This document shows positions 25,527-56,475 of a stretch of 64,000 nt of DNA, piece after piece. How positions within the stretch are numbered: position 1 is the stretch's first letter; every line of letters begins with the position of its first letter. Position numbers and translations under genes: made by a program. The notes below the pieces were generated by a model that did not search any database, had not been told where the DNA came from, and saw nothing but the letters and a program-made list of their open reading frames with translations. Origin of the DNA: an uncultured Candidatus Saccharibacteria bacterium (GTDB lineage: Bacteria; Patescibacteriota; Minisyncoccia; Phycocordibacterales; PALSA-1337); the NCBI GenBank assembly GCA_964468845.1, contig CAYXWP010000001.1, forward strand, positions 6,411 to 70,410. The letters are read 5' to 3'.

Positions 25527-25626
25527 GCTTTTAAATATATGATCTTATAAGACCCTTATCTTACCTTATATTAAGGCAATAGTAAAGGAAGTGTCGGGAA
25601 ACTGATTTGTATTTTACCTACCAAAT

Positions 25627-26619
25627 CTACTCCTCACCAAAACTTGTAAAAGATGTTTTGTTTTCTAGATCGCGGTTTGCGAGATAATTGTTCACAACAT
25701 ATATACCAAGAATAAGTACAAGGACGATAAGTCCATTTGTAATAAGTCTTGGATGCTTTTTATCCATACGAACAAATAGTTTGAACAGAAGTGCAATTAT
25801 GACGAGAATTGCTAAAATAAATAATACAATATTTATAATATGGCGTGGTGATGTTGAGTATTTATCGATAACAGTAGATTTTACATATGTTTGTGGGGGT
25901 TCTGTATTCACGATCTCTGTTGAAGTACCTTTGACTGTCGGTATGAGAGTTTCTATTTTTTCTACTAAGACCGGTGTCACACTCTTGGCTACTACTGGCT
26001 TATCCACAACATTAATCTGTGCAGGCTTGCCATAAACCTGAGCAACGAAAATAGTAGGACTTCCCTCAAATGTTCCTGTTGCAATACCCGTTCCCATCTC
26101 TGTATAAGCATTCTTCACAATATTTGCCTTATGGGTCGGAGAATTCATCCATGCGATAGTAACATCCTGTGAATCCGTGAAGTCGATAGCTAGATTCTCT
26201 CCCGCATACTCATATTTGTATCCAACTTGATTAAACCAGTACCATGGAGCCTTTCCTTCGGGACTAACATGGGAAAAATAACCCTTTTCTGCCATATCCC
26301 TTGCTTTGAGCTCTGCAACTTTGTTTAGAAGTGGATTTACCGTAAGAATTGCTAGATCCTGTGATTCTCTATTTTGATTTGTTAAGTCGTCTAGTACGCT
26401 GGGTAGAACCGCTGCTAGATTACTATTATCAACAAAACTAAGTGGTGGTATGTACGGCAATGTCAAAGCACCGATCTCCAGCATGAATACAATCAATACC
26501 AGTAAGCGTGTATTTTTGCCACGTAAAAAATGAGGTTGGTGTCCATTACCTTCATGAGGTATAAAATGTTTTTTTATCCACTTCATCATTGGGATTATTG
26601 TAGCAAACAACCCACACAA
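25627..26619 (-). CDS. CAP (SCP/PR-1, YkwD-like) domain membrane protein
   Basis: N- and C-terminal TM helices. The CAP signature is YFSHVSPEGK...GENLA...WMNSPTHKANIVKNAYTEMGTGIA. Confidence 0.6.
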   Translation of the reverse strand: MCGLFATIIPMMKWIKKHFIPHEGNGHQPHFLRGKNTRLLVLIVFMLEIGALTLPYIPPLSFVDNSNLAAVLPSVLDDLTNQNRESQDLAILTVNPLLNKVAELKARDMAEKGYFSHVSPEGKAPWYWFNQVGYKYEYAGENLAIDFTDSQDVTIAWMNSPTHKANIVKNAYTEMGTGIATGTFEGSPTIFVAQVYGKPAQINVVDKPVVAKSVTPVLVEKIETLIPTVKGTSTEIVNTEPPQTYVKSTVIDKYSTSPRHIINIVLFILAILVIIALLFKLFVRMDKKHPRLITNGLIVLVLILGIYVVNNYLANRDLENKTSFTSFGEE

Positions 26620-26669
26620 AGACGAGCCTCATGTGGGTGTATTGCTAACATCTTAGAGATATAGAGATA

Positions 26670-27101
26670 TTATTTTGTGTTTAATTGTTCAAGTGTCATT
26701 GGTCCAACTCTTCCGACTGTAGGGATCTCATTTGCTAGCTGGAATGCCTTAACTGCTTCCTTTGTAATTGAGCCAAAGAATCCTGTTGATTTACCGAATT
26801 TAAAATGTCCTAGAGCAGCTAGAAGATTTTGTAGCTCAACAACATCACCTCCTCTCATACCTATTTCAAGTTGCTTTGTGAAGTTGAATGCAGATGCTCC
26901 AAGAACACGTCCCTTTTGTGTAGCAATAACTGCCCTTGGGTTTGCTTGTACAGGAAGTACTGGATATGTTCTGTTTATATAACCCTGTGAACCAGAGGAA
27001 TTTCCGCCTCCGCCACCATAACCAAACGCTGTTCCAAAACCTATAGCCGATACCGTAACTAGGGCTGCAATCGCTAAAACTATTTTTGTGTAACTTTTCA
27101 T
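26670..27101 (-). CDS. Secreted peptidoglycan-binding domain (PG_binding_1) protein
   Basis: Signal peptide and a Gly-rich linker, then GDVVELQNLLAALGHF...FFGSITKEAVKAFQ. Confidence 0.55.
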   Translation of the reverse strand: MKSYTKIVLAIAALVTVSAIGFGTAFGYGGGGGNSSGSQGYINRTYPVLPVQANPRAVIATQKGRVLGASAFNFTKQLEIGMRGGDVVELQNLLAALGHFKFGKSTGFFGSITKEAVKAFQLANEIPTVGRVGPMTLEQLNTK

Positions 27102-27179
27102 TATTTTTAAAATATTTAATTAAATGCTTTTTATATGATAAGATACTACCATAGTAATCAACCATGAGCAAGGTGTAAC

Positions 27180-28712
27180 ATGTTAACAACCTCACTTCAA
27201 AAATCAAGCCTTAATTTAAGCCATAGTCTCATATTAACATCTCTATTTACACTAATCATCCTTGGAGGTTTTTTACGTTTCTACAACCTCTCATCTCAAT
27301 CATATTGGATGGATGAGGGTTATACAGTGAACGCAGTCATGTCTATTTCTGAACATGGATCAACTATTCTAGACTCAGGCCAGAATTACTCATGTCCAAC
27401 ATACTGCTATCCTACGGCATTATTTGTAAAAATACTTGGTAATGATCCGGGAACTTACCGTCTACTATCTGTGATAGTTGGGTTAATTTTTATTGTTGCA
27501 ATATTCTTTATTGTTAGGAAACTCTTCGATAAAAATATTGCATTACTTTCATCTTTTTTTATTACTTTTTCCTATTGGCAGATAGCATGGTCTAGACAAG
27601 CACGTTGGTATACCCTTTTTGCTTTATTTTTTTGGTTAGCTATTTATTTCTTTTATCAAGCTATCTATTCTGAGAAAAAAAGATACGTAAACATTCTTCT
27701 TACTACTACTTTCTCAGTCCTTGCTATCCTTACTCATGGTTTGGGGTATTTGTTACCTATTATATTCATTGGTTGGATATTGCTGGATCAAGTATTCATT
27801 CAAAGGAATTTTAATTGGAAAAAGAACCTCCTTGTTCTAGCAGGCGGAACGATTGTCTTATATATATTCAATCTCATATCAAATATCGATATAATAGGAT
27901 ATCTTTTAAATACCTTCAAGCTTCACTATGTTCTGCCATACTATCTGAATTTTTATCTCCGAAACTATTGGCTCTTTATTGTCCTTGCTCTTGTCGCAAT
28001 TTTTAGTAATAACAAGTCTTATAGAAAAGAAATATATTTTTTATTATTTACTTTTCTTATTTACTTTATTCCCCTCTCTCTATTCACAGACATCGTTCAG
28101 TATCGTTATATGTTCCATCTGACACCAATTTTTTTTATACTGGGTTCTATGGGGGTATTCCAACTACACAATGATATAAAGAGCCTATACGGAAAAGTTA
28201 TACTTTGGATTGTAGTTGTGGGCCTATTTGCTACTATAGCTGGTGGCGTATTTATTCCAAAGACAAACTATTATCTAGAATCTGATAATCCAAGTACTCT
28301 TGGTGACCGTCCTTACTATGCTTATACTCCTCAGCCAAATTGGTCTGGTGCATACGGCTTTATAAAAGCCAATAGTAATGCTGATTCTAAAATTATTTCT
28401 AGTCATCCTCACTTCAATAAAATATTTCTTGGCCAAGCTGGTTATTGGATAAAGTATAACTATCTCGGTTTTGATAATAAAGCTGAATATAGTAAAGATA
28501 ATAAAGAATTCTATGTTGGAGCAGAAATCATTAATAATATTGATAAGTTAAAGACTATAGTGACAAATAGTAATGGCTATATCGTATTTGACTACATGGC
28601 TACAGACGGAAGAATATTGCCTGAGATTATTGATTATATAGAAACCAATTTGGATCTAGTATTTCACGATTTTACAAACTCATATTCTGAAGTCTGGGTG
28701 TATAAATTTTAG
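27180..28712 (+). CDS. GT-C fold glycosyltransferase (family 39/83, ArnT / PMT-like)
   Basis: About 11 TM helices. The first-loop motif YWMDEGY and overall topology are typical of polyprenyl-phosphate-sugar dependent GT-C enzymes. Large C-terminal periplasmic domain. Confidence 0.6.
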   Translation: MLTTSLQKSSLNLSHSLILTSLFTLIILGGFLRFYNLSSQSYWMDEGYTVNAVMSISEHGSTILDSGQNYSCPTYCYPTALFVKILGNDPGTYRLLSVIVGLIFIVAIFFIVRKLFDKNIALLSSFFITFSYWQIAWSRQARWYTLFALFFWLAIYFFYQAIYSEKKRYVNILLTTTFSVLAILTHGLGYLLPIIFIGWILLDQVFIQRNFNWKKNLLVLAGGTIVLYIFNLISNIDIIGYLLNTFKLHYVLPYYLNFYLRNYWLFIVLALVAIFSNNKSYRKEIYFLLFTFLIYFIPLSLFTDIVQYRYMFHLTPIFFILGSMGVFQLHNDIKSLYGKVILWIVVVGLFATIAGGVFIPKTNYYLESDNPSTLGDRPYYAYTPQPNWSGAYGFIKANSNADSKIISSHPHFNKIFLGQAGYWIKYNYLGFDNKAEYSKDNKEFYVGAEIINNIDKLKTIVTNSNGYIVFDYMATDGRILPEIIDYIETNLDLVFHDFTNSYSEVWVYKF

Positions 28713-28753
28713 CTATTGTAATATGGTCATAAATATGACATAATATTGCCCAC

Positions 28754-29836
28754 ATGAATAACTTTCTGAAACACTTAAGAAGTGGCCTTTGGCTCAAATC
28801 CCCTATCTTCTGGGCTCGCTTCCTCGCTTACGCTATCCCTCTCACCTTCCTCCTCTATGTTCTATATATGAACTTCCTTCCTTTTGGCTATAATAAGAGC
28901 TTTGTAATAGATGTTGGTAGTCCTACCGATACTAAAGTCAGTGAATTCTATCTCGAACCATCGAAAGATCTCTCAGAATCAAAAGTTGGTCCTGATGGTA
29001 AAACATACCGTGAACTTAACGGTACAGCTTCAGTTGTTTTCAAACCAAAGGTCATATTAAAAAATGCTACTGCTACTATATCAGTTGATGGTGAAGGTGT
29101 GTCAATAATCCCTCCAGTAATCAACTTTGATCCATCTAGTATCACAGACTGGGACTATAGTTGGGACTTCACAAAAGGAATTCCGAAGGAATTGGTAGGC
29201 AACGCCTTCATGTTCGATGGTGCTACGTATTTCGATGGTAAAAGCAGACTAGAGCTTCCAAATACTGCAAATAAGTTTGAAAACAGAGCATTCAGTATTT
29301 ATGTAGAATGGGAGCCAAGAGATAGTGAGAATAATACCCAGCAAATCATCGGACACTATAACTGGGAAATATGGCAGAATAAAGAGACGGTAGAATTTCG
29401 TGTCGGTAGAATGACGAATAATACTGGTCCTGCATACTCACTAAAGTTTAACATCATTCCAGATTTTTTTAATAAGAGTCATACAGCACTAGCAATATAT
29501 AATCCATCAGAAAGTGGCTATATAGAATTTTATGTTGACGGTAACTTTGCTGGAAGAACATATTTTGCTAATGAAAAAATATTTACTAAATATGGGGATC
29601 AGAATTTAAGTTTGGGATGGACACCACATAACAATAGTAATAGTCCATACTTTATTGGATCGGTTTATAAGGTAAACACCGTCTCCAAGAATGTATTACA
29701 GCCTCAATCTGAGATAAGCCTTACAGCGACTAATAGTGATCCGATTTATATTTCTATTATTTCCACTTATGACACCTCAACCTCGACTGCCACCTCGACT
29801 ATTAGGCAAATAAAATTAAATGCCATTCAAAAATAA
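28754..29836 (+). CDS. Membrane-anchored LamG / concanavalin-A-like lectin domain protein
   Basis: N-terminal TM, then FDGATYFDGKSRLELP...FSIYVEWEP...EFRVG (Laminin_G_3-like). Ser/Thr-rich C-terminus. Confidence 0.45.
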   Translation: MNNFLKHLRSGLWLKSPIFWARFLAYAIPLTFLLYVLYMNFLPFGYNKSFVIDVGSPTDTKVSEFYLEPSKDLSESKVGPDGKTYRELNGTASVVFKPKVILKNATATISVDGEGVSIIPPVINFDPSSITDWDYSWDFTKGIPKELVGNAFMFDGATYFDGKSRLELPNTANKFENRAFSIYVEWEPRDSENNTQQIIGHYNWEIWQNKETVEFRVGRMTNNTGPAYSLKFNIIPDFFNKSHTALAIYNPSESGYIEFYVDGNFAGRTYFANEKIFTKYGDQNLSLGWTPHNNSNSPYFIGSVYKVNTVSKNVLQPQSEISLTATNSDPIYISIISTYDTSTSTATSTIRQIKLNAIQK

Positions 29837-31625
29837 TATAAATAAGTATATTTATTCAACATATAGGTATTTTATTATACCATTTTGCTTAATGAGTAGT
29901 ATTGTAATATTAGTCATTATTATTTATTTTCCTATCTATGGTAATACATTTAAACCTTATACTGGTTTAATTAGCCCCCTAAAATTTTTTTCAGCATTGG
30001 GATTAATCATGCTAATAATTAAATTTAATAATTATTTTAAGACCCCAAAACAATCTATAGATATAAAAAAGGAATACTTTTTTCATCCAATATTGCTCAC
30101 AGCATTTATTATTACATACATTTTAACCAGATTGTATTTTATCCTTCATTCCCCGATTAATGTCTCTGATGATTGGCAAGCGATTACTTCAGGAAAAAGC
30201 ATAATAGAAAATGGTTATTTTCCATCAATCACCACTAATGATTCTCAATATGGATATATTAGGGGCGCGTATGTTTCAATTCTTGTTGCAATATTTTTTA
30301 AATTGTTTGGATATAGTATTTATGTTGCAAAGGCAGTACCAGCTTTTATTGGATTATTAAACTCAATATTGTTTTATAATATTTGTAGCAAGATTTTTCA
30401 AAATAGGTGGGTAAAAGTATTGTCATTGATAATATATATAGTTTGTCCACTAATTATATTTAATGATTGGTTTATTAGAATGTATGTTTTTTATGAGTTT
30501 TTTGCACTTTTAAGTATATTATTTCTATTTAGGATCAATTTATTTATTGAAACTAAACAAAACAAAAAAATACTCACGTATATTATATTAATAGTCCTCA
30601 TAAATATATTTTGTTGGTTTCTAAGCTTTGATCCAGGAAAATACCTTATACTCATACTAAATATATTTGGTTTATTTGCGATTCTATTTTTAAATAGAAA
30701 AGAATTATACAAATTTGATATTATAAAAAAGATAACTTGTAATAAGTTTTTACGAATTACTGATATGTTTATATTAGTAACTATTATTATGTCTGGGTTT
30801 ATGATTAGATATTTCCCAGTAATTCAGGATAGAATATTTTTTTTATTAAATGGTAAATTAGATAACTCATTACATTTATCTTTTTATAAAATATTTTTTG
30901 AGGAAAATATAATATTAACACTTCTCTTTATTACTTCCTCATTATTTATTGTAAAATTAAAAAATAACAGTAGTAAATTAATTACCATTATAGGAATATC
31001 GTTATTTTTACTTCATTTAATTTCAAGTGATGACCTACAAGTTTCAAGAGGATTACTATATTTTATACCAATCTACATTATTATTGCTTTAATTTCACTT
31101 GAAAATATTATTGAGTGGATAGGATCTAAGTTATTTTCTATTTTACTTATTATGATAATTGTATTAAATATATTACTATCTTTTCCTTTAAATTATATTG
31201 AATCATTTCCGAGTTTAGAAAATGAACTTCACTATCAAGATGATCTTGGTTTATATTCCTTTATTAAAACAGATTTAAAAAACTATACTATATTACAATC
31301 AACATATGAAAATATGCCCGATTTATTTTTTGATACCTATACGGAATTTAATATTATATTAAATAGTCACTCTACAACTGATATACCCTATTTTTACTTT
31401 GATTCAGAAAATAATTTATATAGACAAATATCAACTAAAACACCAGTTGTGACAAACGCTGACATTTTTGAAAATAAATTTAATATTTTATTAAAAAATA
31501 AAGTAGCAATAGTAATTTTGCCACACGTTAGAGAATTATTTATTGATAATAAAACTTTTGAAGTGATAAGACAAAAACTTCCAAACTTGAGAAAATTTGT
31601 TGGATATGAAATATACTATAATTAG
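29820..31625 (+). CDS. Large polytopic membrane protein; possible second GT-C glycosyltransferase or O-antigen polymerase-like
   Basis: 601 aa, extremely AT-rich, at least 12 TM helices in the N-terminal two thirds and a soluble C-terminal domain. No diagnostic motif recognised. Confidence 0.35.
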   Translation: MPFKNNINKYIYSTYRYFIIPFCLMSSIVILVIIIYFPIYGNTFKPYTGLISPLKFFSALGLIMLIIKFNNYFKTPKQSIDIKKEYFFHPILLTAFIITYILTRLYFILHSPINVSDDWQAITSGKSIIENGYFPSITTNDSQYGYIRGAYVSILVAIFFKLFGYSIYVAKAVPAFIGLLNSILFYNICSKIFQNRWVKVLSLIIYIVCPLIIFNDWFIRMYVFYEFFALLSILFLFRINLFIETKQNKKILTYIILIVLINIFCWFLSFDPGKYLILILNIFGLFAILFLNRKELYKFDIIKKITCNKFLRITDMFILVTIIMSGFMIRYFPVIQDRIFFLLNGKLDNSLHLSFYKIFFEENIILTLLFITSSLFIVKLKNNSSKLITIIGISLFLLHLISSDDLQVSRGLLYFIPIYIIIALISLENIIEWIGSKLFSILLIMIIVLNILLSFPLNYIESFPSLENELHYQDDLGLYSFIKTDLKNYTILQSTYENMPDLFFDTYTEFNIILNSHSTTDIPYFYFDSENNLYRQISTKTPVVTNADIFENKFNILLKNKVAIVILPHVRELFIDNKTFEVIRQKLPNLRKFVGYEIYYN

Positions 31626-31629
31626 AAAT

Positions 31630-32385
31630 CTATATATTTAAAATCAGTCTTATCTTCTTTTTTATTATAAAAATATAATATCTAAGATAACCAAAATAGA
31701 ACTTAACAATCAATGATGACTCCCTATAATTTTCTCTTTTCTGTCTTGAACTCACTCCATCTATTCCATAGACAGCAACGTCTCTATCTAAGTAACCAAT
31801 TCCTTTTTTTTGAATATAAAATTTACAAATCAGATCAAAGTCAGATGCAATTCTGTAGTTTAAATTAAATAAACTAAAATTAATAATTGATCTTCTATCC
31901 ATAAAAATTGCTTGATGTGGTGGTCTCCTACCAGCTTTTATATCTTTATAATTAAATATACCTCCAATCTTATTATAATCACCGCTCTTTGACATAAAAG
32001 TTACATTTCCATACAACATATCAATTTTTTGCGTTTTGTAATAATTCATCATATCTAAAATTGAATTATTGTCAGCAATAACGTCATCCGCCCCAAGAAA
32101 ATATATAACATCACCCTTTGACAGACTAACTCCTTTGTTCATCGCGTCATAGATACCACTGTCTGGCTCGCTTATTATACAATCGATTGAATCTTGGTAT
32201 TTATCTATAATACTTAGTGTCCCATCAGTAGATTCACCATCAACAATAATATATTCAAAATTTCTATAATTCTGATGTGCGACAGACTTTATTGTATTTT
32301 CAATGGTATCTTTGGCATTAAAGACAACAGTGATGATACTAAGAAAGGGTTTATCTATTTTTTTATTTTCATATCTTTTGTGCAT
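31630..32385 (-). CDS. Family 2 glycosyltransferase
   Basis: SIITVVFNAKDTIENTIKSV...YIIVDGESTDGT and DxD. Confidence 0.8.
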   Translation of the reverse strand: MHKRYENKKIDKPFLSIITVVFNAKDTIENTIKSVAHQNYRNFEYIIVDGESTDGTLSIIDKYQDSIDCIISEPDSGIYDAMNKGVSLSKGDVIYFLGADDVIADNNSILDMMNYYKTQKIDMLYGNVTFMSKSGDYNKIGGIFNYKDIKAGRRPPHQAIFMDRRSIINFSLFNLNYRIASDFDLICKFYIQKKGIGYLDRDVAVYGIDGVSSRQKRENYRESSLIVKFYFGYLRYYIFIIKKKIRLILNI

Positions 32386-33673
32386 TTTTTTTAAGAAGAA
32401 AATAATAATATGATATAAATAATATATCAGTAAGACATCTTATACCAACCGTAGCATATACTCCACCCATAAATCCAAACTTACTAATTAACATATATGT
32501 AAATGGGATATTGAGTATGCCGAATATAAGTAAGAAATACATATTAATCTTTGCGTGTCCTGTAGCAACACTGAAGCCAACAGAAACGACAGCTGCGACA
32601 GCTTGTGTAATTAACATAATTAGCATCACATAAAATGCATTAAAGAAAATTACAGCCTGATATTTAATTAATATGTACTTTAGAATGAAAGGTACAAGTA
32701 AATATGAAGCAATAGTTAAAATAATTGAAATAACAAATATTAATGTAAAGTATTGTTTAAATTTTTTATATATTTCACTGACTCTTCCACTAGCATACAG
32801 ACCAGTAATATCAGGTGAGATCACCTGAGCAAAAATCATAAATGGTGACACTAGAATTAGAAAAATTTTATTAATCAATTCGTAAAAACCAATTTCGGAT
32901 ATATAACCAAAGTGACCTAATAGAATCACATCTACTCTGCTATATACAAAATAACTTAGACTTATTACACCAAGAATTATAGAATATTTGCTAATATTTC
33001 TAATAACTGATAAATCAACTTTAATCTTCCATTCTCTTGGCCAATAGCCAATCAGAATAGCTAAAAAAAAGATAATTGAAAATACGTTATTAGCCCAAAG
33101 AGCACCAAACAATCCCCAAAAATATATAAGGGGTAAAGAAATAATTAATCCAATAATACCCGTAAATGCGGTTATAATTGATAGTTTTTTAAATAATTTT
33201 AACCCGCGATATATTCCTGTATAGATATAAGTTAACGGAAGAAAAATTAATGATGGAATTAAATTTTTTACAAATATGAACTCCTTTCCTAATAGAGATG
33301 GTCCAAATATTAATAATAACAAACTCAATAATATTAAAATAGATCCAACAAAAACCAACGTACTAAATGATAAATATTTTAGTTTGTCTTTATTAGTTTC
33401 ATTATACTCGGCAACATATTTTGATGTTGCAGTAGATACACCAAAATCTCCAAATAAAACAAGTAGCATCAATATGGCTACTGAATAATTATAAATACCA
33501 AAGTCATATGAATTTAATAACCACGCTGATATAAAAAATACACCCAATATAAACAGCTGTTTCCCTGATATTTGAATAAACTGCCAAAAAGTATTAGCTA
33601 GTGTTTTTTTATTATTTAAATATATTATTCTTATTTTGTTAATCATTTTTAATACGTTTATATAAGACTGCAA
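32369..33673 (-). CDS. Wzx-like oligosaccharide flippase (MOP superfamily, polysaccharide biosynthesis protein)
   Basis: 434 aa with 12-14 TM helices and the typical MOP-flippase hydrophobic profile. Confidence 0.6.
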   Translation of the reverse strand: MQSYINVLKMINKIRIIYLNNKKTLANTFWQFIQISGKQLFILGVFFISAWLLNSYDFGIYNYSVAILMLLVLFGDFGVSTATSKYVAEYNETNKDKLKYLSFSTLVFVGSILILLSLLLLIFGPSLLGKEFIFVKNLIPSLIFLPLTYIYTGIYRGLKLFKKLSIITAFTGIIGLIISLPLIYFWGLFGALWANNVFSIIFFLAILIGYWPREWKIKVDLSVIRNISKYSIILGVISLSYFVYSRVDVILLGHFGYISEIGFYELINKIFLILVSPFMIFAQVISPDITGLYASGRVSEIYKKFKQYFTLIFVISIILTIASYLLVPFILKYILIKYQAVIFFNAFYVMLIMLITQAVAAVVSVGFSVATGHAKINMYFLLIFGILNIPFTYMLISKFGFMGGVYATVGIRCLTDILFISYYYFLLKKNAQKI

Positions 33674-34598
33674 AGTTAGTTATGATTAACGATAAACCAT
33701 CCATCCATGGCTTAATTAATAAGCTTTGAAAAAATAAACCAGTTTGATGTGCAGATTTAATTGAGAAAAAAATTAATAATCCTCCACCAATCATGAAAAG
33801 CAGTAGTGAAAGCTTTGGAATATATACGCAACTTAATAATATTATTAAAAAATATATTATTGGTATATTAAAACGAAATAATACACTTAATGGGTCATTC
33901 ATACCCATTTTAATCATGGTTGCTCGCCCTAAAGAACCTTTAATCAATGTAGAAATATAATCTAGAAAAAATGATGTATTGTCATGAAAAATAAAAGTGT
34001 GAGGGTTATAAATAATATTATAATTTGATTTAAATATTCTTTCACAAAGCTCTTTATCCTCAGAGAAACGGGTAACATTTGATGTTGTTTGTAGTTTTTC
34101 GAGAAAATTACCTACTTTTTTTAGAACATTTTTTCGAATCGCGAGATTGCAACTAGGACATCCACGCATATATTTAAAATGTTTGAACCTAGGATACCCA
34201 TCTAATAGTGCAACTCCGAGATAGTTTGATATCCAAGTTACGTTAAATGGTAAAATCATGCCTATTCCAGCACCAGTTTTAGTATCTACGAAAGTTTCGT
34301 CATTACAAAAATTTAGATACTCAGAATCAATTTTTGTATCGGCATCAAGAAATAATAGAATTTCTCCTAATGATTTTTCTATTCCTAAATTTCTAGCCTC
34401 AGATGGCCCACTCTTAACTTCTAAAAATACTTTTATTGGATATTTTCTAGCTATGTTTATGCTTGCGTCATTAGAATTATTATCAACATAAATAATTTCG
34501 TATGCTTTTTTTGGATAATTTAATTTTAGACATGATTGAATACATCTATCTAAATTTTTTTCTTCATTATAACCACATATAATTATACTAAATTTCAT
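33639..34598 (-). CDS. Family 2 glycosyltransferase with C-terminal TM helices
   Basis: FSIIICGYNEEKNLDRCIQS...IIYVDNNSNDAS and the DAD motif. Confidence 0.75.
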   Translation of the reverse strand: MKFSIIICGYNEEKNLDRCIQSCLKLNYPKKAYEIIYVDNNSNDASINIARKYPIKVFLEVKSGPSEARNLGIEKSLGEILLFLDADTKIDSEYLNFCNDETFVDTKTGAGIGMILPFNVTWISNYLGVALLDGYPRFKHFKYMRGCPSCNLAIRKNVLKKVGNFLEKLQTTSNVTRFSEDKELCERIFKSNYNIIYNPHTFIFHDNTSFFLDYISTLIKGSLGRATMIKMGMNDPLSVLFRFNIPIIYFLIILLSCVYIPKLSLLLFMIGGGLLIFFSIKSAHQTGLFFQSLLIKPWMDGLSLIITNFAVLYKRIKND

Positions 34599-34599
34599 A

Positions 34600-35715
34600 T
34601 TATTTTATATACTTTTCAGCAATTTTTTTTAAATTAAATTGATTACTATATTTTATTATTTTTTCTCTATTAAAATAATTTTCGTTAAAAATAGTCCCTA
34701 TGTCTTTTATAGTCTGATCTATATTATTATATTCAATTAAAAAACCATTTGTATTATTTACTAAGTCAGCCTGTCCACCATTATTTGTTGCTACGATTGG
34801 TAGACCGACTTGCATAGCTTCCTGCAAGACAATTCCAAAACCTTCATGAACAGACGATAGAAAAAATATATCACTATTTTGTAAATATTGAAACTTTTTG
34901 TTTTGATCTATAAACCCAGTAAAGATTATCTTATTAGATATACCTAGTTTATAAGCTAAATTTTTTAATTGTTTCTCCTCTGGACCATCACCAATTATTA
35001 TTCCAATGACATTATTTGGTAATTTAGATATAACTTTAATAAAAAAATCAAAGCCTTTTCTTTTTACAAGCCTACCGACTCCGATAACATACTTTTTATC
35101 TACTTCCAAACCTATTTCTGATCTACTTTTTTTATCAAATGGCACCAACTCGTATGGTAGTGGGATAATCTGTATATCATTTTTAGGGTGATAATATTTT
35201 ATACAATTTTCCTTCGTATTTGAAGATTGGGCCACTATAGTATTGGCTCTATTTAAAAGGAAAGTAATGCATTTCCTTAAATACCAATGTAAGTGAGGCG
35301 AATTATTTTTAGTTGGATCATATATATCACCACCATGAAGAGAGACTATATTTTTAATATGAAATAGTCTTGCTAAAATATATCCAAGTGGGCCAGTAGG
35401 CACTACAAACTGGGTATTAATAAACTCATATTTATTCTTTCTACATAAAGATATCCCTTTCCACAACCCAGAAATTGGATAACAGAGCATGGAAATAGTT
35501 GTGGCGGTAGATAATTCCTTTCTGCCAAAAACTTTTACTCTATATACATTAATACCATCAATAATCTCAAACTTTCTTAATCCTTTATACCATGTAGTAA
35601 TGTAGTCTACCTGATAACCAAGTTCTACAAAACCTTTTGCTAATTTATGAGCAGCAACACCTCCTCCCCCACCAAGTGGTGGAAATTCATAGTTTAGGAC
35701 TAATATCTTTTTCAT
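34600..35715 (-). CDS. Family 4 (GT-B, group 1) glycosyltransferase
   Basis: N-terminal GGGGGVAAH and the C-terminal EGFGIVLQEAMQVGLPIVAT (E-x7-E region). Confidence 0.8.
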   Translation of the reverse strand: MKKILVLNYEFPPLGGGGGVAAHKLAKGFVELGYQVDYITTWYKGLRKFEIIDGINVYRVKVFGRKELSTATTISMLCYPISGLWKGISLCRKNKYEFINTQFVVPTGPLGYILARLFHIKNIVSLHGGDIYDPTKNNSPHLHWYLRKCITFLLNRANTIVAQSSNTKENCIKYYHPKNDIQIIPLPYELVPFDKKSRSEIGLEVDKKYVIGVGRLVKRKGFDFFIKVISKLPNNVIGIIIGDGPEEKQLKNLAYKLGISNKIIFTGFIDQNKKFQYLQNSDIFFLSSVHEGFGIVLQEAMQVGLPIVATNNGGQADLVNNTNGFLIEYNNIDQTIKDIGTIFNENYFNREKIIKYSNQFNLKKIAEKYIK

Positions 35716-36677
35716 TATTTTATTAGAATCTCTCTCACTCTATATCTCCTCTCATGTTTCGATGTATTGAATCGAATACCAATAAGTAGATCAATTACAA
35801 TACCGAAACTAAATAATATTATACCAGCAATTATTAGAAATGCTGTTATGAAGAAGAGGCCGTTTCTGTTGAACCCAAGGCCCATAAATATTTTTTCATA
35901 AAGAGTCCAGAATCCTGCTACGAATCCAAAGAAGAAACATGTGATACTTGCGTAGCCAAAAAGGTGCAGAGGTCTTTGTGAATATTTCTGTATAAACCAA
36001 ATATATACTAGGTCGATAAAACCTCGTATTGCTTTACTGCAATTATATTTACTCTTACCAACTGTCCTTGGGCGATGATTCACTACCAATTCACCAATTC
36101 TAAAACCTTTCCATTTTAAAATAGCTAGAATATAACGATGCATCTCACCTCCTATATCTAGACAATCAACTGCCTCCTTTGTATAAACTCGAAGCATACA
36201 CCCACTATCATGAACAATATCACCTATAAGTATTCGGCGAAGTATACGGCCAATACGTGTAAGAATATTAATACTAGAGCTATCCATTCTCTTCTTTCTC
36301 CATCCAGCAACTACATCTAGGTTCTCTTTTATTAGCTTATCAAAAAGGAGTGGTATATCAGCTGGATCATTCTGACAATCGCCATCCATAGTTACTACAT
36401 ACTTGCCAGTACAAGCTCTAAAACCAGCGTCTAAGGCTGTTGCTTGACCATAGTTACGGTTTAGATTGATGATCTTCGCATTACTTAGTGTATTGAGCTC
36501 TGTTAGGGTTTCATCAGTACTACCATCATTCACATAAATAACTTCGTAATCTCCTGAAATATCAGACAAAGATGTTTTTATTTCCTGATCTAGTCTACTA
36601 ATATTCCCTGCTTCATTATATATAGGGACCACAATAGACAGTCTTTTTCCTGTATTTTCCATAAAAATACTATACAT
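35715..36677 (-). CDS. Polyprenyl-phosphate glycosyltransferase (GT2; GtrB / ArnC / DPM1-like)
   Basis: LSIVVPIYNEAGNI...VIYVNDGSTDET and DGD, plus two C-terminal TM helices characteristic of Und-P-sugar synthases. Confidence 0.7.
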   Translation of the reverse strand: MYSIFMENTGKRLSIVVPIYNEAGNISRLDQEIKTSLSDISGDYEVIYVNDGSTDETLTELNTLSNAKIINLNRNYGQATALDAGFRACTGKYVVTMDGDCQNDPADIPLLFDKLIKENLDVVAGWRKKRMDSSSINILTRIGRILRRILIGDIVHDSGCMLRVYTKEAVDCLDIGGEMHRYILAILKWKGFRIGELVVNHRPRTVGKSKYNCSKAIRGFIDLVYIWFIQKYSQRPLHLFGYASITCFFFGFVAGFWTLYEKIFMGLGFNRNGLFFITAFLIIAGIILFSFGIVIDLLIGIRFNTSKHERRYRVREILIK

Positions 36678-36744
36678 TAGAAATCAGTTTCTTACAATAG
36701 GATTACTCTTAAATCTCCAATATCAACCTTCCAGTAATCGCCTC

Positions 36745-46151: not shown

Positions 46152-46772
46152 ATGAATGGAAATAGAGAAAAACTCATGATTAGACTGCAAACAAAGAGGA
46201 TAGTAGCTATTTTATTTACATCCATATTGGTACTAGCAATTGCGTCTTTTTTCATATTTAAAAGTAAACCTATAAATATTGATGGGGGTCTTTCAACTAT
46301 TCAACAAGCATCTACAATAACCACATCCCCTGTTATCGTTGTTAAGCCGGCAGGAACAACTACAACTTCCACGTCCAAACAAGCAAAAGTATTGATAGGA
46401 AGTACAAAAATATCCGTAGAGCTTGCGAGGACTACAGCACAGATAAATAAAGGCCTGTCTGGCCGACTTTCACTTGACCCATATAATGGTATGCTTTTTA
46501 TGTTTAGTAAGGCATCTATATACCGTTTCTGGATGCCAGACATGCATTTCCCGCTCGACCTAATTTGGATAAATAATGGTAAGATTGTAGACATATCAGC
46601 GCATGCTTCAAATGATTTTAACCCGACGAACCCTGTGTACTATAGACCGAAAAGCCCAGCCCAATATGTACTAGAGGTGAACGCTGACTTTTGCAAAAAT
46701 CATGGGATAAAAATAGGAGATAAGGTGACATTTGAAAATATCCCCCAGCTTAACAATCTAAGTAATGAATAA
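46152..46772 (+). CDS. DUF192 (COG1430) domain secreted protein
   Basis: TM/signal, Thr-rich linker, then GLSGR...GMLFMF...FWMPDMHFPLDLIWIN. Confidence 0.65.
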   Translation: MNGNREKLMIRLQTKRIVAILFTSILVLAIASFFIFKSKPINIDGGLSTIQQASTITTSPVIVVKPAGTTTTSTSKQAKVLIGSTKISVELARTTAQINKGLSGRLSLDPYNGMLFMFSKASIYRFWMPDMHFPLDLIWINNGKIVDISAHASNDFNPTNPVYYRPKSPAQYVLEVNADFCKNHGIKIGDKVTFENIPQLNNLSNE

Positions 46773-47790
46773 TATAGAAATTACAACAATGTATCCCGAG
46801 CAATGGGATAAATTCGTAGAAGAAAATTACCCTGCAGTTGGGGCTTTTATGCAAACATGGGCCTGGGGGGAATTCCAAAAAAAGCTAGGTAGAAATGTAA
46901 ATAGATATTCAGTAATGAATGGCAAAAAAGCTATAGCAGTCTTTACTCTCGTCGAACTAAAATTAAATTTTGGTTTTAAATATGGATATATACCAAGAGG
47001 ACCAGTAATACAGAGGGGTACTAATTCAAAAAAGATAGCTGATATATTTGAATCAATCAAAAAATGGTCTTTAAAAAAATTTCCACAATATATTTTTCTT
47101 CGTCTTGAACCACCAATTTCTTTTTCAAATGAATATATGCGAAATGGTTTCCATTTACCATCATTTTATATTCAGCCAAGACACAATGTTGTTATAGACC
47201 TTACTAAATCTGAGGAAGAAATTCTTGCTTCTTTTCATTCTTCAACCCGATCAAACACAAAGCGTGCAGAAAAGCGTGGAGTAACTGTTGTGGTGAAAGA
47301 CAATATTACCCTAAGCGACTATCAGGCCTTTAAAGAAATGGTGAACGACACTATAGTAAGAAATAACGGCAAAAACGCTTATCCGAGCGACGAATACTTC
47401 CGATTCTTTCTGAAGGAAGTCCCCTTTACTGGATTTTATGGTCTGTGCGATGAAAAACCAGCATCCGTTCATTTTGTACTTTTCTTTGGCAACACAGCGA
47501 CATATCTTTATGGAGCATCCCATACAGCATATTTAAACTCAAAGGTGGATACGTATCTGCATTGGTCCGCAATGCGAGAAGCGAAGCGCAGGGGATGTAA
47601 ATACTATGACTTAGGGGGGATTGATCCTGTACGCTGGCCGGGCCTAACTGCTTACAAAAGACAGTACAAAGGCATGGAATTAGAATACATGGGAAATATT
47701 GATATACCTTTTAAAATAATTCACTATAGGCTATATTCGCTTGCAAGGCTTATAAAAACCAAGATCAGTGAGATGATTACGAAGAAGTAA
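46765..47790 (+). CDS. FemAB-family aminoacyl-tRNA-dependent peptidoglycan peptidyltransferase (lipid II interpeptide bridge)
   Basis: 341 aa. W..F......F.Q...W......G...Y, YIPRGP and a duplicated GNAT-like fold typical of FemX/FemAB. Confidence 0.6.
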   Translation: MNNIEITTMYPEQWDKFVEENYPAVGAFMQTWAWGEFQKKLGRNVNRYSVMNGKKAIAVFTLVELKLNFGFKYGYIPRGPVIQRGTNSKKIADIFESIKKWSLKKFPQYIFLRLEPPISFSNEYMRNGFHLPSFYIQPRHNVVIDLTKSEEEILASFHSSTRSNTKRAEKRGVTVVVKDNITLSDYQAFKEMVNDTIVRNNGKNAYPSDEYFRFFLKEVPFTGFYGLCDEKPASVHFVLFFGNTATYLYGASHTAYLNSKVDTYLHWSAMREAKRRGCKYYDLGGIDPVRWPGLTAYKRQYKGMELEYMGNIDIPFKIIHYRLYSLARLIKTKISEMITKK

Positions 47791-52916: not shown

Positions 52917-54221
52917 TCAATCAATCGCGCCCGAAATGGAATTGGTCGCCTTATCGCCAATATCATGTCGCATCTGCTTGCCATTGAAATGGATTTCGTT
53001 GGCAGCAGCATAAGCACGTTTCTTAGCTATATGAAGATTTTCTCCCCAAGCAGTGACTCCTAGGACTCGTCCCCCATTGGTACCAAACATCTGGCCCATG
53101 CGCTTAGTCCCAGCATGAAAGATTTTGACATTGTCCATTTTGGATACTCGATCGAGCCCCCAAATCAACTGATCGTTACTTTGCCCTTTCGGATACCCCT
53201 TTGAGGCAAGCACGATGCAGACCGAGGCACCCGGAAACCAGTCCAATTTAACATGGCTGGAACCGCCGTCCGACGAGCATGCATATAGAACTTCAAACAG
53301 ATCGGAGCCAAGCCTGGACAGATATGCTTGAGCTTCCGGATCACCAAAGCGGGCATTAAATTCGAGAACCTTCAAACCCTTGTCCGTGAGCATAACCCCT
53401 GGATAGAGTAAACCTCGATAATCGATACCTTCTGTTACGCATCCATCATGCCAGTGTGCAATTATATCCTCATTGATTTTCTTGAGTAGCCCATTGTGAA
53501 CAAATGGCGTGGGAAAATATGCACCCATACCGCCTGTCATGGGACCTTGATCACCATCAAGAAAATGCTTATGATCTTGAGAAGTCGGAAATAGATACAC
53601 GTTCCTCGCGTTGCAAAGAATGTGAAGTGAGATCTCTGTTCCAACAAGCCGTTCCTGTATAAGAATTGGAGAGTCCGGCTTATTCGCAAACTTAGCATCA
53701 ATCATCTCAATGGCCTCCTCAATGAAATCTGGTAAACTCACACCCTTGCCCCTACATAATCCATCAGATTTAATGACACATCGCCCACCAAGTTTTTCAA
53801 CGTAATGTTTTGCAGGTTCTGGGTCGCTAAACACTTCCCCATTTGGCGATGGAATACCATAACGCTTCATGAAGTTGTGAGAATAAACCTTGGATGACTC
53901 AAGTTGTGCAGCCTTCTGATTTGGTCCGAATATGGCAAACTTTTTCCTTGCAAAGAGATCCGCAATACCGATTGCAAGCGGATCGTCAGGACCGACAACA
54001 GTCAGTGTTGGTTTCTTCTCACAAGCAAAGCTAAAAAGTCGTGGCAAATCTGTGACCTTAATACCAACGCATTGCACGGAATTGCCGTTCTTCAGTCGCT
54101 CTTGTGCTATACCAGGATTACCTGGAGCACACCACAGTTCCGTAACTTGTGGTGATTGTGCCAATGACCACACTAACGCATGTTCCCTACCACCTCCGCC
54201 AATAACCAGTACAGTGCTCAT
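52917..54221 (-). CDS. purD: Phosphoribosylamine--glycine ligase (GAR synthetase), copy 1; GC-rich
   Basis: MSTVLVIGGGGREHALVW and an ATP-grasp domain with LEFNARFGDPE. The start is trimmed to the Met at 54221 because the track's N-terminal extension is AT-rich leader. Confidence 0.9.
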   Translation of the reverse strand: MSTVLVIGGGGREHALVWSLAQSPQVTELWCAPGNPGIAQERLKNGNSVQCVGIKVTDLPRLFSFACEKKPTLTVVGPDDPLAIGIADLFARKKFAIFGPNQKAAQLESSKVYSHNFMKRYGIPSPNGEVFSDPEPAKHYVEKLGGRCVIKSDGLCRGKGVSLPDFIEEAIEMIDAKFANKPDSPILIQERLVGTEISLHILCNARNVYLFPTSQDHKHFLDGDQGPMTGGMGAYFPTPFVHNGLLKKINEDIIAHWHDGCVTEGIDYRGLLYPGVMLTDKGLKVLEFNARFGDPEAQAYLSRLGSDLFEVLYACSSDGGSSHVKLDWFPGASVCIVLASKGYPKGQSNDQLIWGLDRVSKMDNVKIFHAGTKRMGQMFGTNGGRVLGVTAWGENLHIAKKRAYAAANEIHFNGKQMRHDIGDKATNSISGAID

Positions 54222-54295
54222 AATTTTATTTCCTTTCGAAGAACATTCACCATTGACTATACTGATTTTTAGCAAAAAAACAACCGATAGAAAAC

Positions 54296-54844
54296 TTACT
54301 CCACCAATGTAATCCTTGGCCACCTTTCCTTCCACTTCTTTTTTTCCATCCTTTCTTTGATTACATCTATCCTATCTTTAAAAACTGGACTCGGTCTTAC
54401 AATAAAATTTACAAGGTCACTTATCCCATGTGGGGCAACTAAGACCAAGTTGCCATTTTTATCCATGCTCACACCTACCGCAGTAGCTGTCTCTGGCCAC
54501 TTTGAAATTGCATCTTCAGTTGATGTATATGGAGATAAACCATTCCACTTATTTGCATAGAATTCGTTTACAACTTCCCATTCAATTCCAGTCTCCTCTT
54601 GAAGCTTGGTAGACAATTTTTTATCCGCCTCCTCGTCATTACCGTTTGGATCAAAATATACCAAATCGATGTCAGTAATATCGGCAGTTGTATTCTCAAT
54701 CCCTGACAAATGATTCCATATTTTACTTCTCACAAAGCCAGCACCGATAACCCAATCGGGTAAATTTAGTGTAGAAGCAATTGTAATAATTTTCATCATC
54801 CATTCGTCTTGTTTTATTAAATTGTGTATGTCTTGTTCGGTCAT
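54296..54844 (-). CDS. Nucleotidyltransferase-family protein (NTP_transf_6 / DUF925-like)
   Basis: WVIGAGFVRSKIWNHL...DIDLVYFD. Confidence 0.5.
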   Translation of the reverse strand: MTEQDIHNLIKQDEWMMKIITIASTLNLPDWVIGAGFVRSKIWNHLSGIENTTADITDIDLVYFDPNGNDEEADKKLSTKLQEETGIEWEVVNEFYANKWNGLSPYTSTEDAISKWPETATAVGVSMDKNGNLVLVAPHGISDLVNFIVRPSPVFKDRIDVIKERMEKKKWKERWPRITLVE

Positions 54845-54984
54845 AAATATACGCTTTCTATTATATCAAACCTATAAATTTAATCCTTGCATTTTCTACA
54901 TCAAAATGTAACATTACTTTTAGACACCTTGAGTGAGGTGTGCATTAGCAAAAATACGAAAAAACTAACCAAAAAGGAGGAGCT

Positions 54985-56475
54985 ATGGCTCACATCCCTC
55001 AGTCAGTACTTGAAAAACAAGCAGTTATCGAAGGCCTCAGTCTGCGTGGTCGTGGAAAAGTTCGCGAATCGTATGACCTGCTCGGGCATCCAAACGAAAT
55101 GCTAGTGGTGGCATCAAACCGCTGTAGCATCTTCGATTTTGTTTTACCAGCCTTGGTCCGCCTTAAAGGAGAAATCCTGACGGCGATGAACCACTTTTGG
55201 GTGACGAATGTCATCGGTGAAATCTTTGAAACCGACCTCGTCGCCTGCGGATCCGGCGTGGATCTGTTTCTGCCAGAGGGTCTGCGTGGTAATGCGGAAC
55301 TTCAGAAGCAAGCCACGGTGGTGAGAATTCTCCCCGCTCCAGACGTTGAGGACGTCGTACGTTTTATCCTCACTGGAGGTGGTTGGGAAAGCTACAAGGC
55401 AACGCAAAGCATCTGTGGGCATCGCTTTCCGAATGGCCTCAGTGATGGAAGCAGGCTTCCATTTCCAGTTTACACCCCAACAACGAAAGCGGCCGTCGGT
55501 CATGATGAACACATCACTGCCGACAGTGTCGCCGAACGTTATGGTGTAAAACGCGAAAGGATGTCTCTGCAGGTAGCTGGGCTTATCGCAAGTTACGCTG
55601 CCAGTCGTGGAATTATTCTCGCAGACACCAAGTTTGAGTTCAGTCTGAGCAATGGGAAGTTGATTTTGGCGGATGAAAAAGGAACCCCGGACTCGAGCCG
55701 ATTCGTCGACAAGGCGACCTGGGAAAAACTCGCGTCAAAGGGCAAGTTTCCGCCCTCACTCGACAAACAATACATTCGTGATTGGGGCATCAAAGCAGGG
55801 GTCAAAATACGAGATCCCCGTAAAGCTGAGGATCTAGCCTTTGTTGACTCGCTTGAAGTGCCGGAACGAGTCACAGATATGACCACCAGCATTTACCGCT
55901 ATGTCTTCTGGAGGCTGACCGGCAAGCAAATCGAGTATTATCAGCGTGACATCTTGGGAATCGCCATGCAGACACCCACACGACGCAAGATCCATGTCGT
56001 GGTCGGAAGCGAAAGCGACTTACCGCAAATTGTCAGGGGGGTTGATTCCATGCGAGTTGTTGCTGACGTGGGTGTAAGCGCCATCAGTTGTCATCGCAAC
56101 CCGGATGAACTGCGACGTTTCGTTCGTGATGAACTAACCACGACTGATGTAGTCATCGCCGGCGCTGGGAAAGCTGCAGCATTACCTGGAATTATCAAGA
56201 GCTACTTGTGCGAACTCGGCAGCCATGTGCCAGTCATTGGTGTTGCCCTTGATTCTGAAAACAGGAAGGACAATGATGCAGCAATATATTCGATTGAATG
56301 CTTGCCAGGGCAACCTGTCGAACTTGATGCCGACGGCAATGCCTATTTCGGCCCAATCGGTTTCATGAAGGCTTGTAGTGCCGCTTCGTGGGATGAGTTC
56401 CTCCCGAAGGCAGTCGAACACAAACCTGCGAAAATCCATATCGAGGGGCAACTTGGGCGGTCTTATCCCCACTAA
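54985..56475 (+). CDS. Bifunctional SAICAR synthetase (PurC) / N5-CAIR mutase-type PurE fusion protein; GC-rich
   Basis: The N-terminal about 300 aa carry PurC motifs (RGRGKVRESYDL, SNRCSIFDF, FWV). The C-terminal about 170 aa carry PurE motifs (HVVVGSESDLPQ, SCHRNPDEL, IAGAGKAAALPG, PVIGVAL). The AGAGxAAxLPG form is class I-like. Confidence 0.8.
   Translation: MAHIPQSVLEKQAVIEGLSLRGRGKVRESYDLLGHPNEMLVVASNRCSIFDFVLPALVRLKGEILTAMNHFWVTNVIGEIFETDLVACGSGVDLFLPEGLRGNAELQKQATVVRILPAPDVEDVVRFILTGGGWESYKATQSICGHRFPNGLSDGSRLPFPVYTPTTKAAVGHDEHITADSVAERYGVKRERMSLQVAGLIASYAASRGIILADTKFEFSLSNGKLILADEKGTPDSSRFVDKATWEKLASKGKFPPSLDKQYIRDWGIKAGVKIRDPRKAEDLAFVDSLEVPERVTDMTTSIYRYVFWRLTGKQIEYYQRDILGIAMQTPTRRKIHVVVGSESDLPQIVRGVDSMRVVADVGVSAISCHRNPDELRRFVRDELTTTDVVIAGAGKAAALPGIIKSYLCELGSHVPVIGVALDSENRKDNDAAIYSIECLPGQPVELDADGNAYFGPIGFMKACSAASWDEFLPKAVEHKPAKIHIEGQLGRSYPH

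Follow-up and report, generated by a model that had tools for sequence, protein, structure and literature searches.

A relocatable ten-gene cassette for predicted envelope glycosylation in Patescibacteria, with a conserved frame and a variable centre

In the Wps system of Lactococcus lactis/cremoris (WpsA/WpsB, WpsC-F, WpsG, WpsH/WpsI and WpsJ; cwps locus, polysaccharide pellicle), WpsA/B makes GlcNAc-P-C55, cytoplasmic glycosyltransferases lengthen it, a Wzx-type protein flips it, and proteins of GT-C fold have been proposed to polymerise the glycan and to link it to rhamnan (PMC10821137). This is the closest described analogue of the locus analysed here, which lies at 25.6-36.7 kb of a 64-kb stretch (the window, i.e. 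all 64,000 nucleotides analysed) of contig CAYXWP010000001.1, from an uncultured Candidatus Saccharibacteria bacterium. The locus is one copy of a ten-gene cassette, consisting of genes for a CAP-domain protein and a peptidoglycan (PG)-binding protein together with eight genes termed g1 to g8. We tentatively favour reading it as a relocatable envelope glycosylation cassette, whose glycan would be primed on a lipid monophosphate and finished by GT-C enzymes.

Like the Wps locus, the cassette combines a family 2 glycosyltransferase (GT2) predicted to act on undecaprenyl monophosphate with cytoplasmic glycosyltransferases (GTs), a Wzx-type flippase and GT-Cs, and both loci have conserved and strain-variable parts (PMC10821137). 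In gene content the two agree in having an undecaprenyl-phosphate sugar synthase, cytoplasmic GTs, Wzx and GT-Cs and no phosphoglycosyl transferase (PGT), an agreement of architecture only. However, g8 has two transmembrane helices of its own, whereas synthases of the WpsA/GacI type need a small activator (WpsB/GacJ), and no gene for a small membrane protein stands beside g8 in the open reading frame (ORF) list. The cassette differs further in that its GT-Cs are mutually paralogous and of the PMT_2 type with a LamG-fold protein between them, in that the CAP and PG-binding genes travel with it, and in having no rhamnan genes nearby; it belongs to a patescibacterium and is known from its genes alone.

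The GtrA/GtrB/GtrV, ArnC/ArnEF/ArnT, CsbB/GtcA/YfhO and GacI/J/K/L systems also couple a GtrB-like synthase with a flippase and a GT-C, the synthase being conserved and the GT-C variable. These systems, however, add one sugar and work without cytoplasmic GT2 or GT4 enzymes, whereas the cassette always carries 2-5 extra GTs and two GT-Cs, and its flippase is of the Wzx or LPG_synthase_TM type as opposed to the GtrA type. In the Agl pathway of Haloferax volcanii, AglJ primes polyprenyl monophosphate, AglG, AglI and AglE extend the chain, AglR takes part in flipping and AglB transfers the glycan en bloc. The cassette shares with it a GtrB-like primer (AglJ), soluble GTs, a Wzx-like protein and a GT-C, but the Agl GT-C is STT3/AglB with a WWDXG motif and an S-layer Asn as acceptor, whereas g1 and g3 lack WWD and belong to the PMT_2 branch. 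Wzx/Wzy O-antigen and capsule loci likewise have a low-GC, mosaic, serotype-like centre with Wzx and several GTs, conserved borders and cassette exchange; in contrast to these, the cassette has no initiating PGT, Wzy, Wzz/PCP or WaaL/LCP ligase, and its large polytopic protein is a GT-C. Paired GT-C paralogues are known from yeast (Pmt1-Pmt2) and mycobacteria (EmbA-EmbB), from which the cassette departs in the hypervariability of g3 and in the LamG-fold gene between g1 and g3.

We found no description of the cassette in the literature, of which our coverage was partial, and met only general remarks on the many glycosyltransferases and the concanavalin-like lectins of Patescibacteria. All the gene families are known already, as is the logic of multicomponent GT-C glycosylation. 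Relative to the literature found, the ten-gene cassette, the invariant GT-C-LamG-GT-C triplet, the plan of frame and centre, the relocation and the g3 family appear to be new. A new principle would be gained only if a monophosphate-primed, GT-C-polymerised route were demonstrated.

Extent, recurrence and composition of the cassette

The cassette begins on the minus strand with the genes for a CAP/SCP-domain membrane protein (25627..26619, 330 amino acids) and a secreted or anchored PG_binding_1 protein (26670..27101, 143 amino acids), the latter divergent from g1. On the plus strand stand g1, a GT-C glycosyltransferase of the PMT_2 type that is GT39/GT83-like (27180..28712, 510 amino acids), g2, a single-pass membrane-anchored protein of ConA/LamG fold (28754..29836, 360 amino acids), and g3, a second, hypervariable GT-C (29820..31625, 601 amino acids), with a 41-nt gap after g1 and a 17-nt overlap after g2. 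This unit is convergent with a minus-strand operon that starts with g8, a predicted polyprenyl-phosphate glycosyltransferase of the GtrB/ArnC type (35715..36677, 320 amino acids), and runs through g7, a soluble GT4 of GT-B fold (34600..35715, 371 amino acids), g6, a GT2 with C-terminal membrane helices (33639..34598, 319 amino acids), and g5, a Wzx-type flippase of the MOP superfamily (32369..33673, 434 amino acids), to g4, a soluble GT2 (31630..32385, 251 amino acids). The spacing in that order is a 1-nt overlap, a 1-nt gap and overlaps of 35 and 17 nt. A promoter scan of this AT-rich DNA gave 65 sites against 68.8 expected and was uninformative.

The coordinates of g1 to g8 in the ORF list match exactly those of an earlier, sequence-only reading of this DNA, which had counted nine consecutive genes; the span holds eight, which is also the number that was listed there. 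The cassette is flanked by LysRS and GreA and, at its other end, by PBP2, MreD, MreC and MreB. The PG-binding and CAP genes, which had been taken for flanks, are present but co-travel with the cassette, while mrdA-mreDCB is indeed a flank.

For comparison, 80 related species genomes were fetched by PBP2 (51-78% identity, all Patescibacteria, mostly labelled Taylorbacteria, Nomurabacteria or Paceibacterota). greA was found within 350 nt after mrdA in 37 of the 80 and beyond an insert of 0.4-4.1 kb in 14, and it fell outside the fetched flank in 22, while none of the ten cassette genes, from CAP to g8, adjoined mrdA in any of them. At the mrdA-proximal junction of the window (36678..36744), 67 nt separate the start of g8 from the stop of the PBP2 gene, and at the greA-proximal junction (25527..25626) about 70 bp 5' of greA can be aligned with the mrdA-greA spacer of relatives. 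Given this alignable stretch and the adjacency of mrdA and greA in relatives, the 11.1-kb stretch between about 25.6 and 36.7 kb has been inserted into a backbone, mreBCD-mrdA-greA-lysS, that is conserved. The cassette borders contain no integrase or tRNA, and direct and inverted repeats there are at chance level only (for example, a 23-nt pair of 83% identity, inside genes).

Other inserts at the mrdA-greA junction include those of loci L008, L017, L019, L029, L035, L040, L048 and L054, and that of L008 (11741-15718) is a single secreted, repeat-rich surface protein of 1325 amino acids. It seems that surface-related accessory genes have landed repeatedly at this junction.

Both g1 and g2 have hundreds of close homologues on shared contigs. 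Three of these contexts were read directly, and the g2 family served to retrieve 80 loci from metagenomes. The architecture of the window cassette is found again, in other chromosomal surroundings, in about 50 metagenomic loci, namely optional CAP and PG-binding genes pointing outwards, then GT-C, LamG and a large GT-C in one direction, and in the opposite direction GTs, one flippase and sugar-modifying genes, with an ArnC-like GT2 at the end. Its neighbours vary (OMPdecase/Band_7 with TspO; SOUL/Msr; UvrC/Ddl with UvrA). That the unit relocates follows from these differing neighbours and from the joined mrdA and greA of the 37 relatives. It is thus a modular, relocatable cassette that is widespread in Patescibacteria (Paceibacteria/Parcubacteria-type genomes).

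The plan is kept with some precision. A protein of 600-790 amino acids with 13-16 hydrophobic segments occupies the slot after LamG in 52 of the 52 loci with at least 2.3 kb of downstream sequence, immediately in 49 and after a gap of 0.4-1.9 kb in 3. Forty of these proteins matched the hidden Markov models (HMMs) of the g1 or g3 family, and when eight further ones were scanned against Pfam, PMT_2 scored above its gathering score in five. The ArnC-like gene ends the cassette in 16 of the 21 loci with at least 9.5 kb of sequence. All 14 complete cassettes have a centre of 5.9-9.0 kb, none of them consisting of the frame only, and 2-5 cytoplasmic GTs were found in every cassette. Single-sequence HMMs detected CAP in 9 and PG-binding in 15 of the 32 cassettes with at least 4 kb upstream, and the CAP gene holds the same position in L083, L085, L086, L087, L093, L097, L099, L111 and L116.

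The CAP, PG-binding, g1, g2 and g8 genes form the frame, and g3 to g7 form a centre that is low in guanine plus cytosine (GC) and mosaic. Median (maximum) identities to the window proteins are 50% (71%) for g1, 53% (76%) for g2 and 61% (63%) for g8, which stays at about 61-63% in most cassettes, while g3 could be recognised in only 3 loci, with 25-29% identity, and g4 and g6 each in 4. The similarity patterns of frame and centre are discordant. In L083, the nearest in the frame (g2 76%, g1 68%), the centre is unrelated and includes a GT of the WbsX type; L081 is near in the centre (g3 49%, g4 53%, g5 54%) and distant in the frame; and L114, L121, L138 and L165 reach 52-58% in g7 but only 41-53% in g2. 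With about 130 loci compared, the block is neither conserved in place nor uniform in composition, in agreement with the variable, horizontally exchanged surface-glycan locus that had been proposed.

The centre (29820-35715) has a GC content of 26.4% against 37.5% in the rest of the window, where the lowest equal-sized segment has 33.9%. For g3 to g7 the values are 22.8-29.4%, with 17-23% at third codon positions (GC3) against a background mean of 32%, and the soluble g4 (28.4%) and g7 (29.4%) are low as well. In contrast, CAP, PG-binding, g1 (32.4%), g2 and g8 (35.1%) are host-typical, so that the AT-extreme core of the sequence-only reading is real but confined to g3-g7. Low GC had further been taken as a hallmark of exchange. 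The locus is indeed variable, but in 13 of the 14 complete cassettes the GC content of the centre lies below that of the frame. The low value is not evidence for a single recent transfer; loci of this type thus have a low-GC centre as a standing property, which they share with O-antigen and capsule loci.

Frame proteins, the GT-C pair and the centre enzymes

g8 aligned from end to end with the ArnC and GtrB families. It matched NCBIfam ArnC (NF007986) with 1.3e-40 over positions 6-312 of 316, PgfS with 1e-35 over its full length and AglJ (TIGR04182) with 2e-19 over positions 3-288 of 293, and among PDB sequences ArnC (9hwj) with 3.9e-35 over residues 9-317 and GtrB sll0501 (5eke) with 2.6e-28. 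With scores below the NCBIfam equivalog cutoffs, g8 does not count as an ArnC orthologue in the strict sense. The protein carries the motif DGDCQNDP, with VTMDGDCQNDPADIP from residue 95 and D-G-D from D98 (the DxD-type D-A/G-D-x-Q pattern), and two C-terminal hydrophobic segments within 239-287. By these matches g8 is a predicted polyprenyl-phosphate glycosyltransferase of the GtrB/ArnC/DPM1 type with C-terminal transmembrane helices, as the sequence-only reading had it.

g1 matched Pfam PMT_2 (PF13231) over residues 73-230 with an E value of 6.1e-12 and 46.5 bits, the cutoff being 26.1. Its acidic motif, in the first extracytoplasmic loop, is YWMDEGY, in which D45 and E46 are invariant across 32 homologues, and it ends in an extracytoplasmic alpha/beta domain. 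The sequence-only reading had staked itself beforehand on 27180..28712 falling in the GT-C superfamily, where the PMT_2 score and the YWMDEGY loop place it. Sources annotate g1 as GT39, and some homologues match PF02366 (PMT). The WWD motif of STT3 is absent from both g1 and g3, which do not show the WWDXG motif and profile of STT3/PglB/AglB.

g3 itself has no Pfam, NCBIfam or PDB sequence match, and its family, with about 180 cluster representatives in an exhaustive HMMER search, has no Pfam model. An alignment of 44 homologues showed a conserved loop, 'Y.G.Y.DEY.HI.SG', and invariant Arg, Tyr and Glu positions. When compared with the g1 family by hhalign, the g3 family matched with 99.4% probability and an E value of 9e-22 over 453 columns, including the C-terminal soluble domain. 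D117-D118 of g3 aligned on D45-E46 of g1; of the 44 family members, 41 have D and 42 have E or D at these positions. In addition, structure comparison recognised a GT-C fold in the polytopic N-terminal module. By curated Pfam membership g3 is not placed among GT-Cs, PMT_2 being matched, weakly, by 2 of the 44 family members. g3 is thus a second GT-C, a distant paralogue of g1, and not a Wzy; a role as Wzy/O-antigen polymerase was rejected on the profile-profile and fold comparisons. For this 601-amino-acid protein GT-C, YfhO and O-antigen polymerase had been offered, and the first of the three was right. The start of g3 is ambiguous, since the longest ORF begins at 29820, 17 nt into g2, and public gene calls begin at 29892, giving 577 amino acids; the first ~90 residues are weakly conserved and modelled with low confidence.

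The AlphaFold2 model of g2 (pLDDT 88.1) has one N-terminal membrane helix (residues 18-36, the only hydrophobic helix) followed by beta-sandwich domains. Foldseek matched it to ConA-like jelly rolls in the PDB with probability 1.0 and E values of 6e-8 to 1e-6 over ~200 columns, among them the lectin-like Hc-N domain of botulinum neurotoxin (BoNT), CBM40 and NEL. g2 itself has no match in Pfam or NCBIfam, PF13385 is on record for about 15 homologues, and the LamG assignment made earlier holds at the level of fold. Its C-terminal stretch is STYDTSTSTATST. Direct searches with g1, g2 and g3 and family profile searches against PDB sequences gave nothing useful for these three proteins. The CAP protein (Pfam CAP, 8.9e-15) has an N-terminal hydrophobic helix, the CAP domain at residues 78-194, a Pro/Thr/Val-rich linker and two C-terminal helices, and the PG-binding protein (Pfam PG_binding_1, 9.3e-14) carries a Gly/Ser-rich linker.

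In the centre, g4 matched Pfam Glycos_transf_2 (7e-26), has zero hydrophobic segments and overlaps the end of g5 with its start (17 nt); g5 matched Polysacc_synt (1.7e-21), Polysacc_synt_3 and MatE and has ~11 hydrophobic segments; g6 matched Glycos_transf_2 (4e-23) and Glyco_trans_2_3, with hydrophobic segments at 236-276; and g7 matched Glycos_transf_1 (2e-41) and Glyco_transf_4 (1e-16). Pfam thus bears out every assignment that had been made for these genes from the sequence alone (GT2, Wzx-like, GT2 and GT4). g5 is the sole flippase candidate of the window cassette. When the membrane ORFs of 37 loci were clustered, 36 of them had one flippase candidate, 24 a Wzx and 12 an LPG_synthase_TM protein, with none having both and one having neither. 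This strict mutual exclusion suggests that the LPG_synthase_TM protein is the flippase where Wzx is missing.

LPG_synthase_TM (PF03706) proteins of ~300-340 amino acids with 6-9 hydrophobic segments stand in for Wzx in 13 cassettes (L091, L107, L108, L113, L116, L122, L130, L131, L133, L138, L142, L144 and L157), of which 12 are in the 37-locus tally.

Neither the cassette nor the other genes scanned in the 64-kb window include a PGT, Wzy, Wzz or LCP. A further 94 centre ORFs from about 40 cassettes, unclassified by our own HMMs, were scanned against Pfam and the 25 commonest families tallied. These were led by GT4 (16), LPG_synthase_TM (13), methyltransferases (13), sugar epimerases/dehydratases (10) and further Wzx (8), with WbsX and nucleotidyl transferases also among them, and no PGT, Wzy or LCP occurred among the 25.

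A candidate assembly route and its alternatives

As the relocatable unit always carries a lipid-sugar synthase, GTs, one flippase and two GT-Cs, it is most simply read as one pathway. In the route that we tentatively favour, g8 would start on the cytoplasmic side by loading a sugar on polyprenyl monophosphate, and g7 (GT4) with g6 and g4 (GT2) would lengthen the lipid-linked sugar into a strain-specific oligosaccharide, which the flippase g5 (Wzx) would carry to the outer face. There g3 would act on what varies in the glycan, either polymerising it or transferring it in a glycan-specific way. g1, probably complexed with g2 and g3, would recognise the conserved reducing-end sugar-phosphate-lipid and join the product to an acceptor in the envelope that is itself conserved, either a wall polymer or a protein. 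A division of labour between g1 and g3, as between WaaL and Wzy, is suggested by the hypervariability of g3 and the conservation of g1, g2 and g8, and a g1-g3 complex by their invariant adjacency. Monophosphate priming, the order of the steps, this division of labour, complex formation and the acceptor are what we infer. A more specific proposal is possible but doubtful, namely that of a shared serotype cassette in which GtrB-type priming starts a heteropolysaccharide on polyprenyl monophosphate and the GT-C pair with LamG is a heteromeric machine that polymerises and attaches it with no Wzy or LCP.

Several points weigh against this route. To our knowledge, the biochemically characterised relatives of the PMT_2/ArnT/PMT group all use polyprenyl-phosphate monosaccharide donors, which by family precedent would limit g1 and g3 to one sugar each. 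The usual substrates of soluble GT2 and GT4 enzymes are diphosphate-linked primers, and the gene for a priming enzyme could lie beyond the 64-kb window. As the tally of centre ORFs covers the 25 commonest families, a few cassettes may carry a rare PGT. Finally, it is conservation patterns that suggest the respective roles of g1 and g3, the role of g2 and the acceptor.

Should monophosphate-primed assembly nevertheless be correct, a GT-C-dependent mode of assembly proposed mainly in lactococci and streptococci would extend to a distant phylum, PMT_2-type enzymes would have a polymerase or ligase role, and surface-glycan diversity would arise without Wzy or LCP in a group where surface recognition of hosts and phages is central. 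Patescibacteria make up a large share of bacterial diversity, are cell-attached and have almost no characterised envelope biochemistry. The conserved handles g1, g2 and g8 with a swappable centre provide a searchable marker for surface-glycan typing, comparable to O-antigen or capsule typing; the cassette is a candidate determinant of host attachment and phage susceptibility, and the conserved GT-C, LamG, GT-C triplet lends itself to structural studies and heterologous experiments. The cassette thus offers a way into the envelope biology of these bacteria.

The strongest rival, serious although less probable than the favoured route, is a Gtr-like arrangement in which a monosaccharide donor made by g8 would be flipped and g1 and g3 would each transfer one sugar. 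The acceptor of g1 would be conserved and the position served by g3 strain-specific, as with the serotype-specific GtrV-type enzymes of Shigella phages. The GT2 and GT4 enzymes would then build a diphosphate-linked repeat unit, for which genes elsewhere would provide priming, polymerisation and attachment. This agrees with g8 as a full-length GtrB/ArnC homologue, with the PMT_2 type of g1 and many slot-3 proteins, and with the monosaccharide donors of their characterised relatives. The pairing of a conserved synthase with a hypervariable GT-C also mirrors the paradigm of GtrA/GtrB with a variable Gtr(type). GacK, a Wzx-type protein, can serve a monosaccharide-lipid (PMC10821137). However, two flipping steps would be needed where 36 of the 37 loci offer one flippase candidate, PGT, Wzy and LCP are missing from the cassette and from its commonest centre families, and a unit that moves together and always includes 2-5 cytoplasmic GTs points to one self-contained pathway. 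The sequence-only reading had described a simple scheme in which a GtrB-type product is flipped and transferred by a GT-C as a single sugar; this would leave the GT2 and GT4 enzymes without a primer or ligase, and an oligosaccharide route primed on polyprenyl monophosphate would agree better with the gene content.

A little less probable still is protein O-glycosylation, like that of actinobacterial Ppm1/Pmt or streptococcal PgfS/PgfM1/PgfM2, which is compatible with either donor model. The targets would be Ser/Thr-rich secreted proteins, possibly the CAP, PG-binding or g2 proteins. The GT39 annotation of g1, the PF02366 (PMT) matches of some of its homologues and the full-length match of g8 to PgfS are in line with this, as are the Pro/Thr/Val/Ser-rich linker of the CAP protein, the Gly/Ser linker of the PG-binding protein and the C-terminal STYDTSTSTATST of g2, and the CAP and PG-binding proteins co-travel with the cassette. 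Yet of 32 cassettes only 9 gave a CAP match and 15 a PG-binding match, PMT_2 includes lipid- and polysaccharide-directed enzymes such as ArnT, and there is no MIR or other PMT-specific domain. Moreover, Wzx with several GTs is more typical of polysaccharide routes.

We regard as improbable a lipoglycan like the mycobacterial phosphatidylinositol mannosides, lipomannan and lipoarabinomannan (PIM/LM/LAM), in which the GT4 and GT2 enzymes would act on a membrane lipid that is flipped and then extended by the GT-Cs with the product of g8. The GT4 matches are far below the family cutoffs and no better than those to many other GT4 families, a second flipping activity would be needed, and the cassette has no acyltransferase or lipid-anchor gene. 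Almost certainly wrong is the idea that there is no island and that a vertically inherited block is low in GC only through the amino-acid composition of its membrane proteins. Both g3 and g5 are strongly hydrophobic and rich in Ile, Phe, Leu, Lys and Asn, but the soluble g4 and g7 share the deficit, it extends to GC3, the polytopic g1 escapes it, the block is missing at the mrdA-greA junction of all 80 relatives and frame and centre disagree in similarity, and a membrane-protein artefact was rejected on GC3 and the soluble genes.

Further observations on related loci and the window

One locus, L082 (1457-10790; GCA_041659265.1, JBAZYP010000003.1), is labelled 'Candidatus Pacearchaeota archaeon' and has 24% GC throughout. 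It encodes a g3-like GT-C (45%, in the C-terminal half), a GT2 (41%), a Wzx (47%) and a GT4 (51%) in the order of the window centre, and g1, g2 and g8 are not present at the locus. With g3, g4, g5 and g7 at 41-51%, the centre genes may be common to Patescibacteria and DPANN archaea. The locus may reflect gene sharing between bacteria of the candidate phyla radiation (CPR) and DPANN archaea, or it may be a mislabelled bin. Genes for DUF433 and DUF5615, which we take to be toxin-antitoxin-like, adjoin this copy, and NYN-domain and WYL-domain genes were seen in or beside the cassettes of two unrelated loci (L084, 18575-19641; L082, 10932-11489).

L166, L167 and L168 correspond to window positions 25754-31045, 25754-30923 and 28058-30503 and come from three independent groundwater assemblies (PRJNA292723 and a Logan run), all of which end inside g3. 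They had been considered as strain variants with another centre, since the next gene is called 56 nt downstream; this was rejected, as they are 99.98-100% identical to the window and the matter is one of start-codon choice in g3. Breaks at this point, where the low-GC centre begins, may reflect heterogeneous strains or a drop in coverage.

Elsewhere in the window, 52917-56475 and 60229-61524 hold two full-length purD (GARS) genes and a SAICAR synthetase-AIR carboxylase fusion. These genes sit in patches with 46-51% GC, far above the 36% of the window, which may be a second, high-GC acquired region, for purine synthesis. A FemAB-family peptidyltransferase (46765-47790) and a type II/IV secretion ATPase (PilB-like; 233-1369) are also encoded, with envelope and surface functions typical of such genomes.

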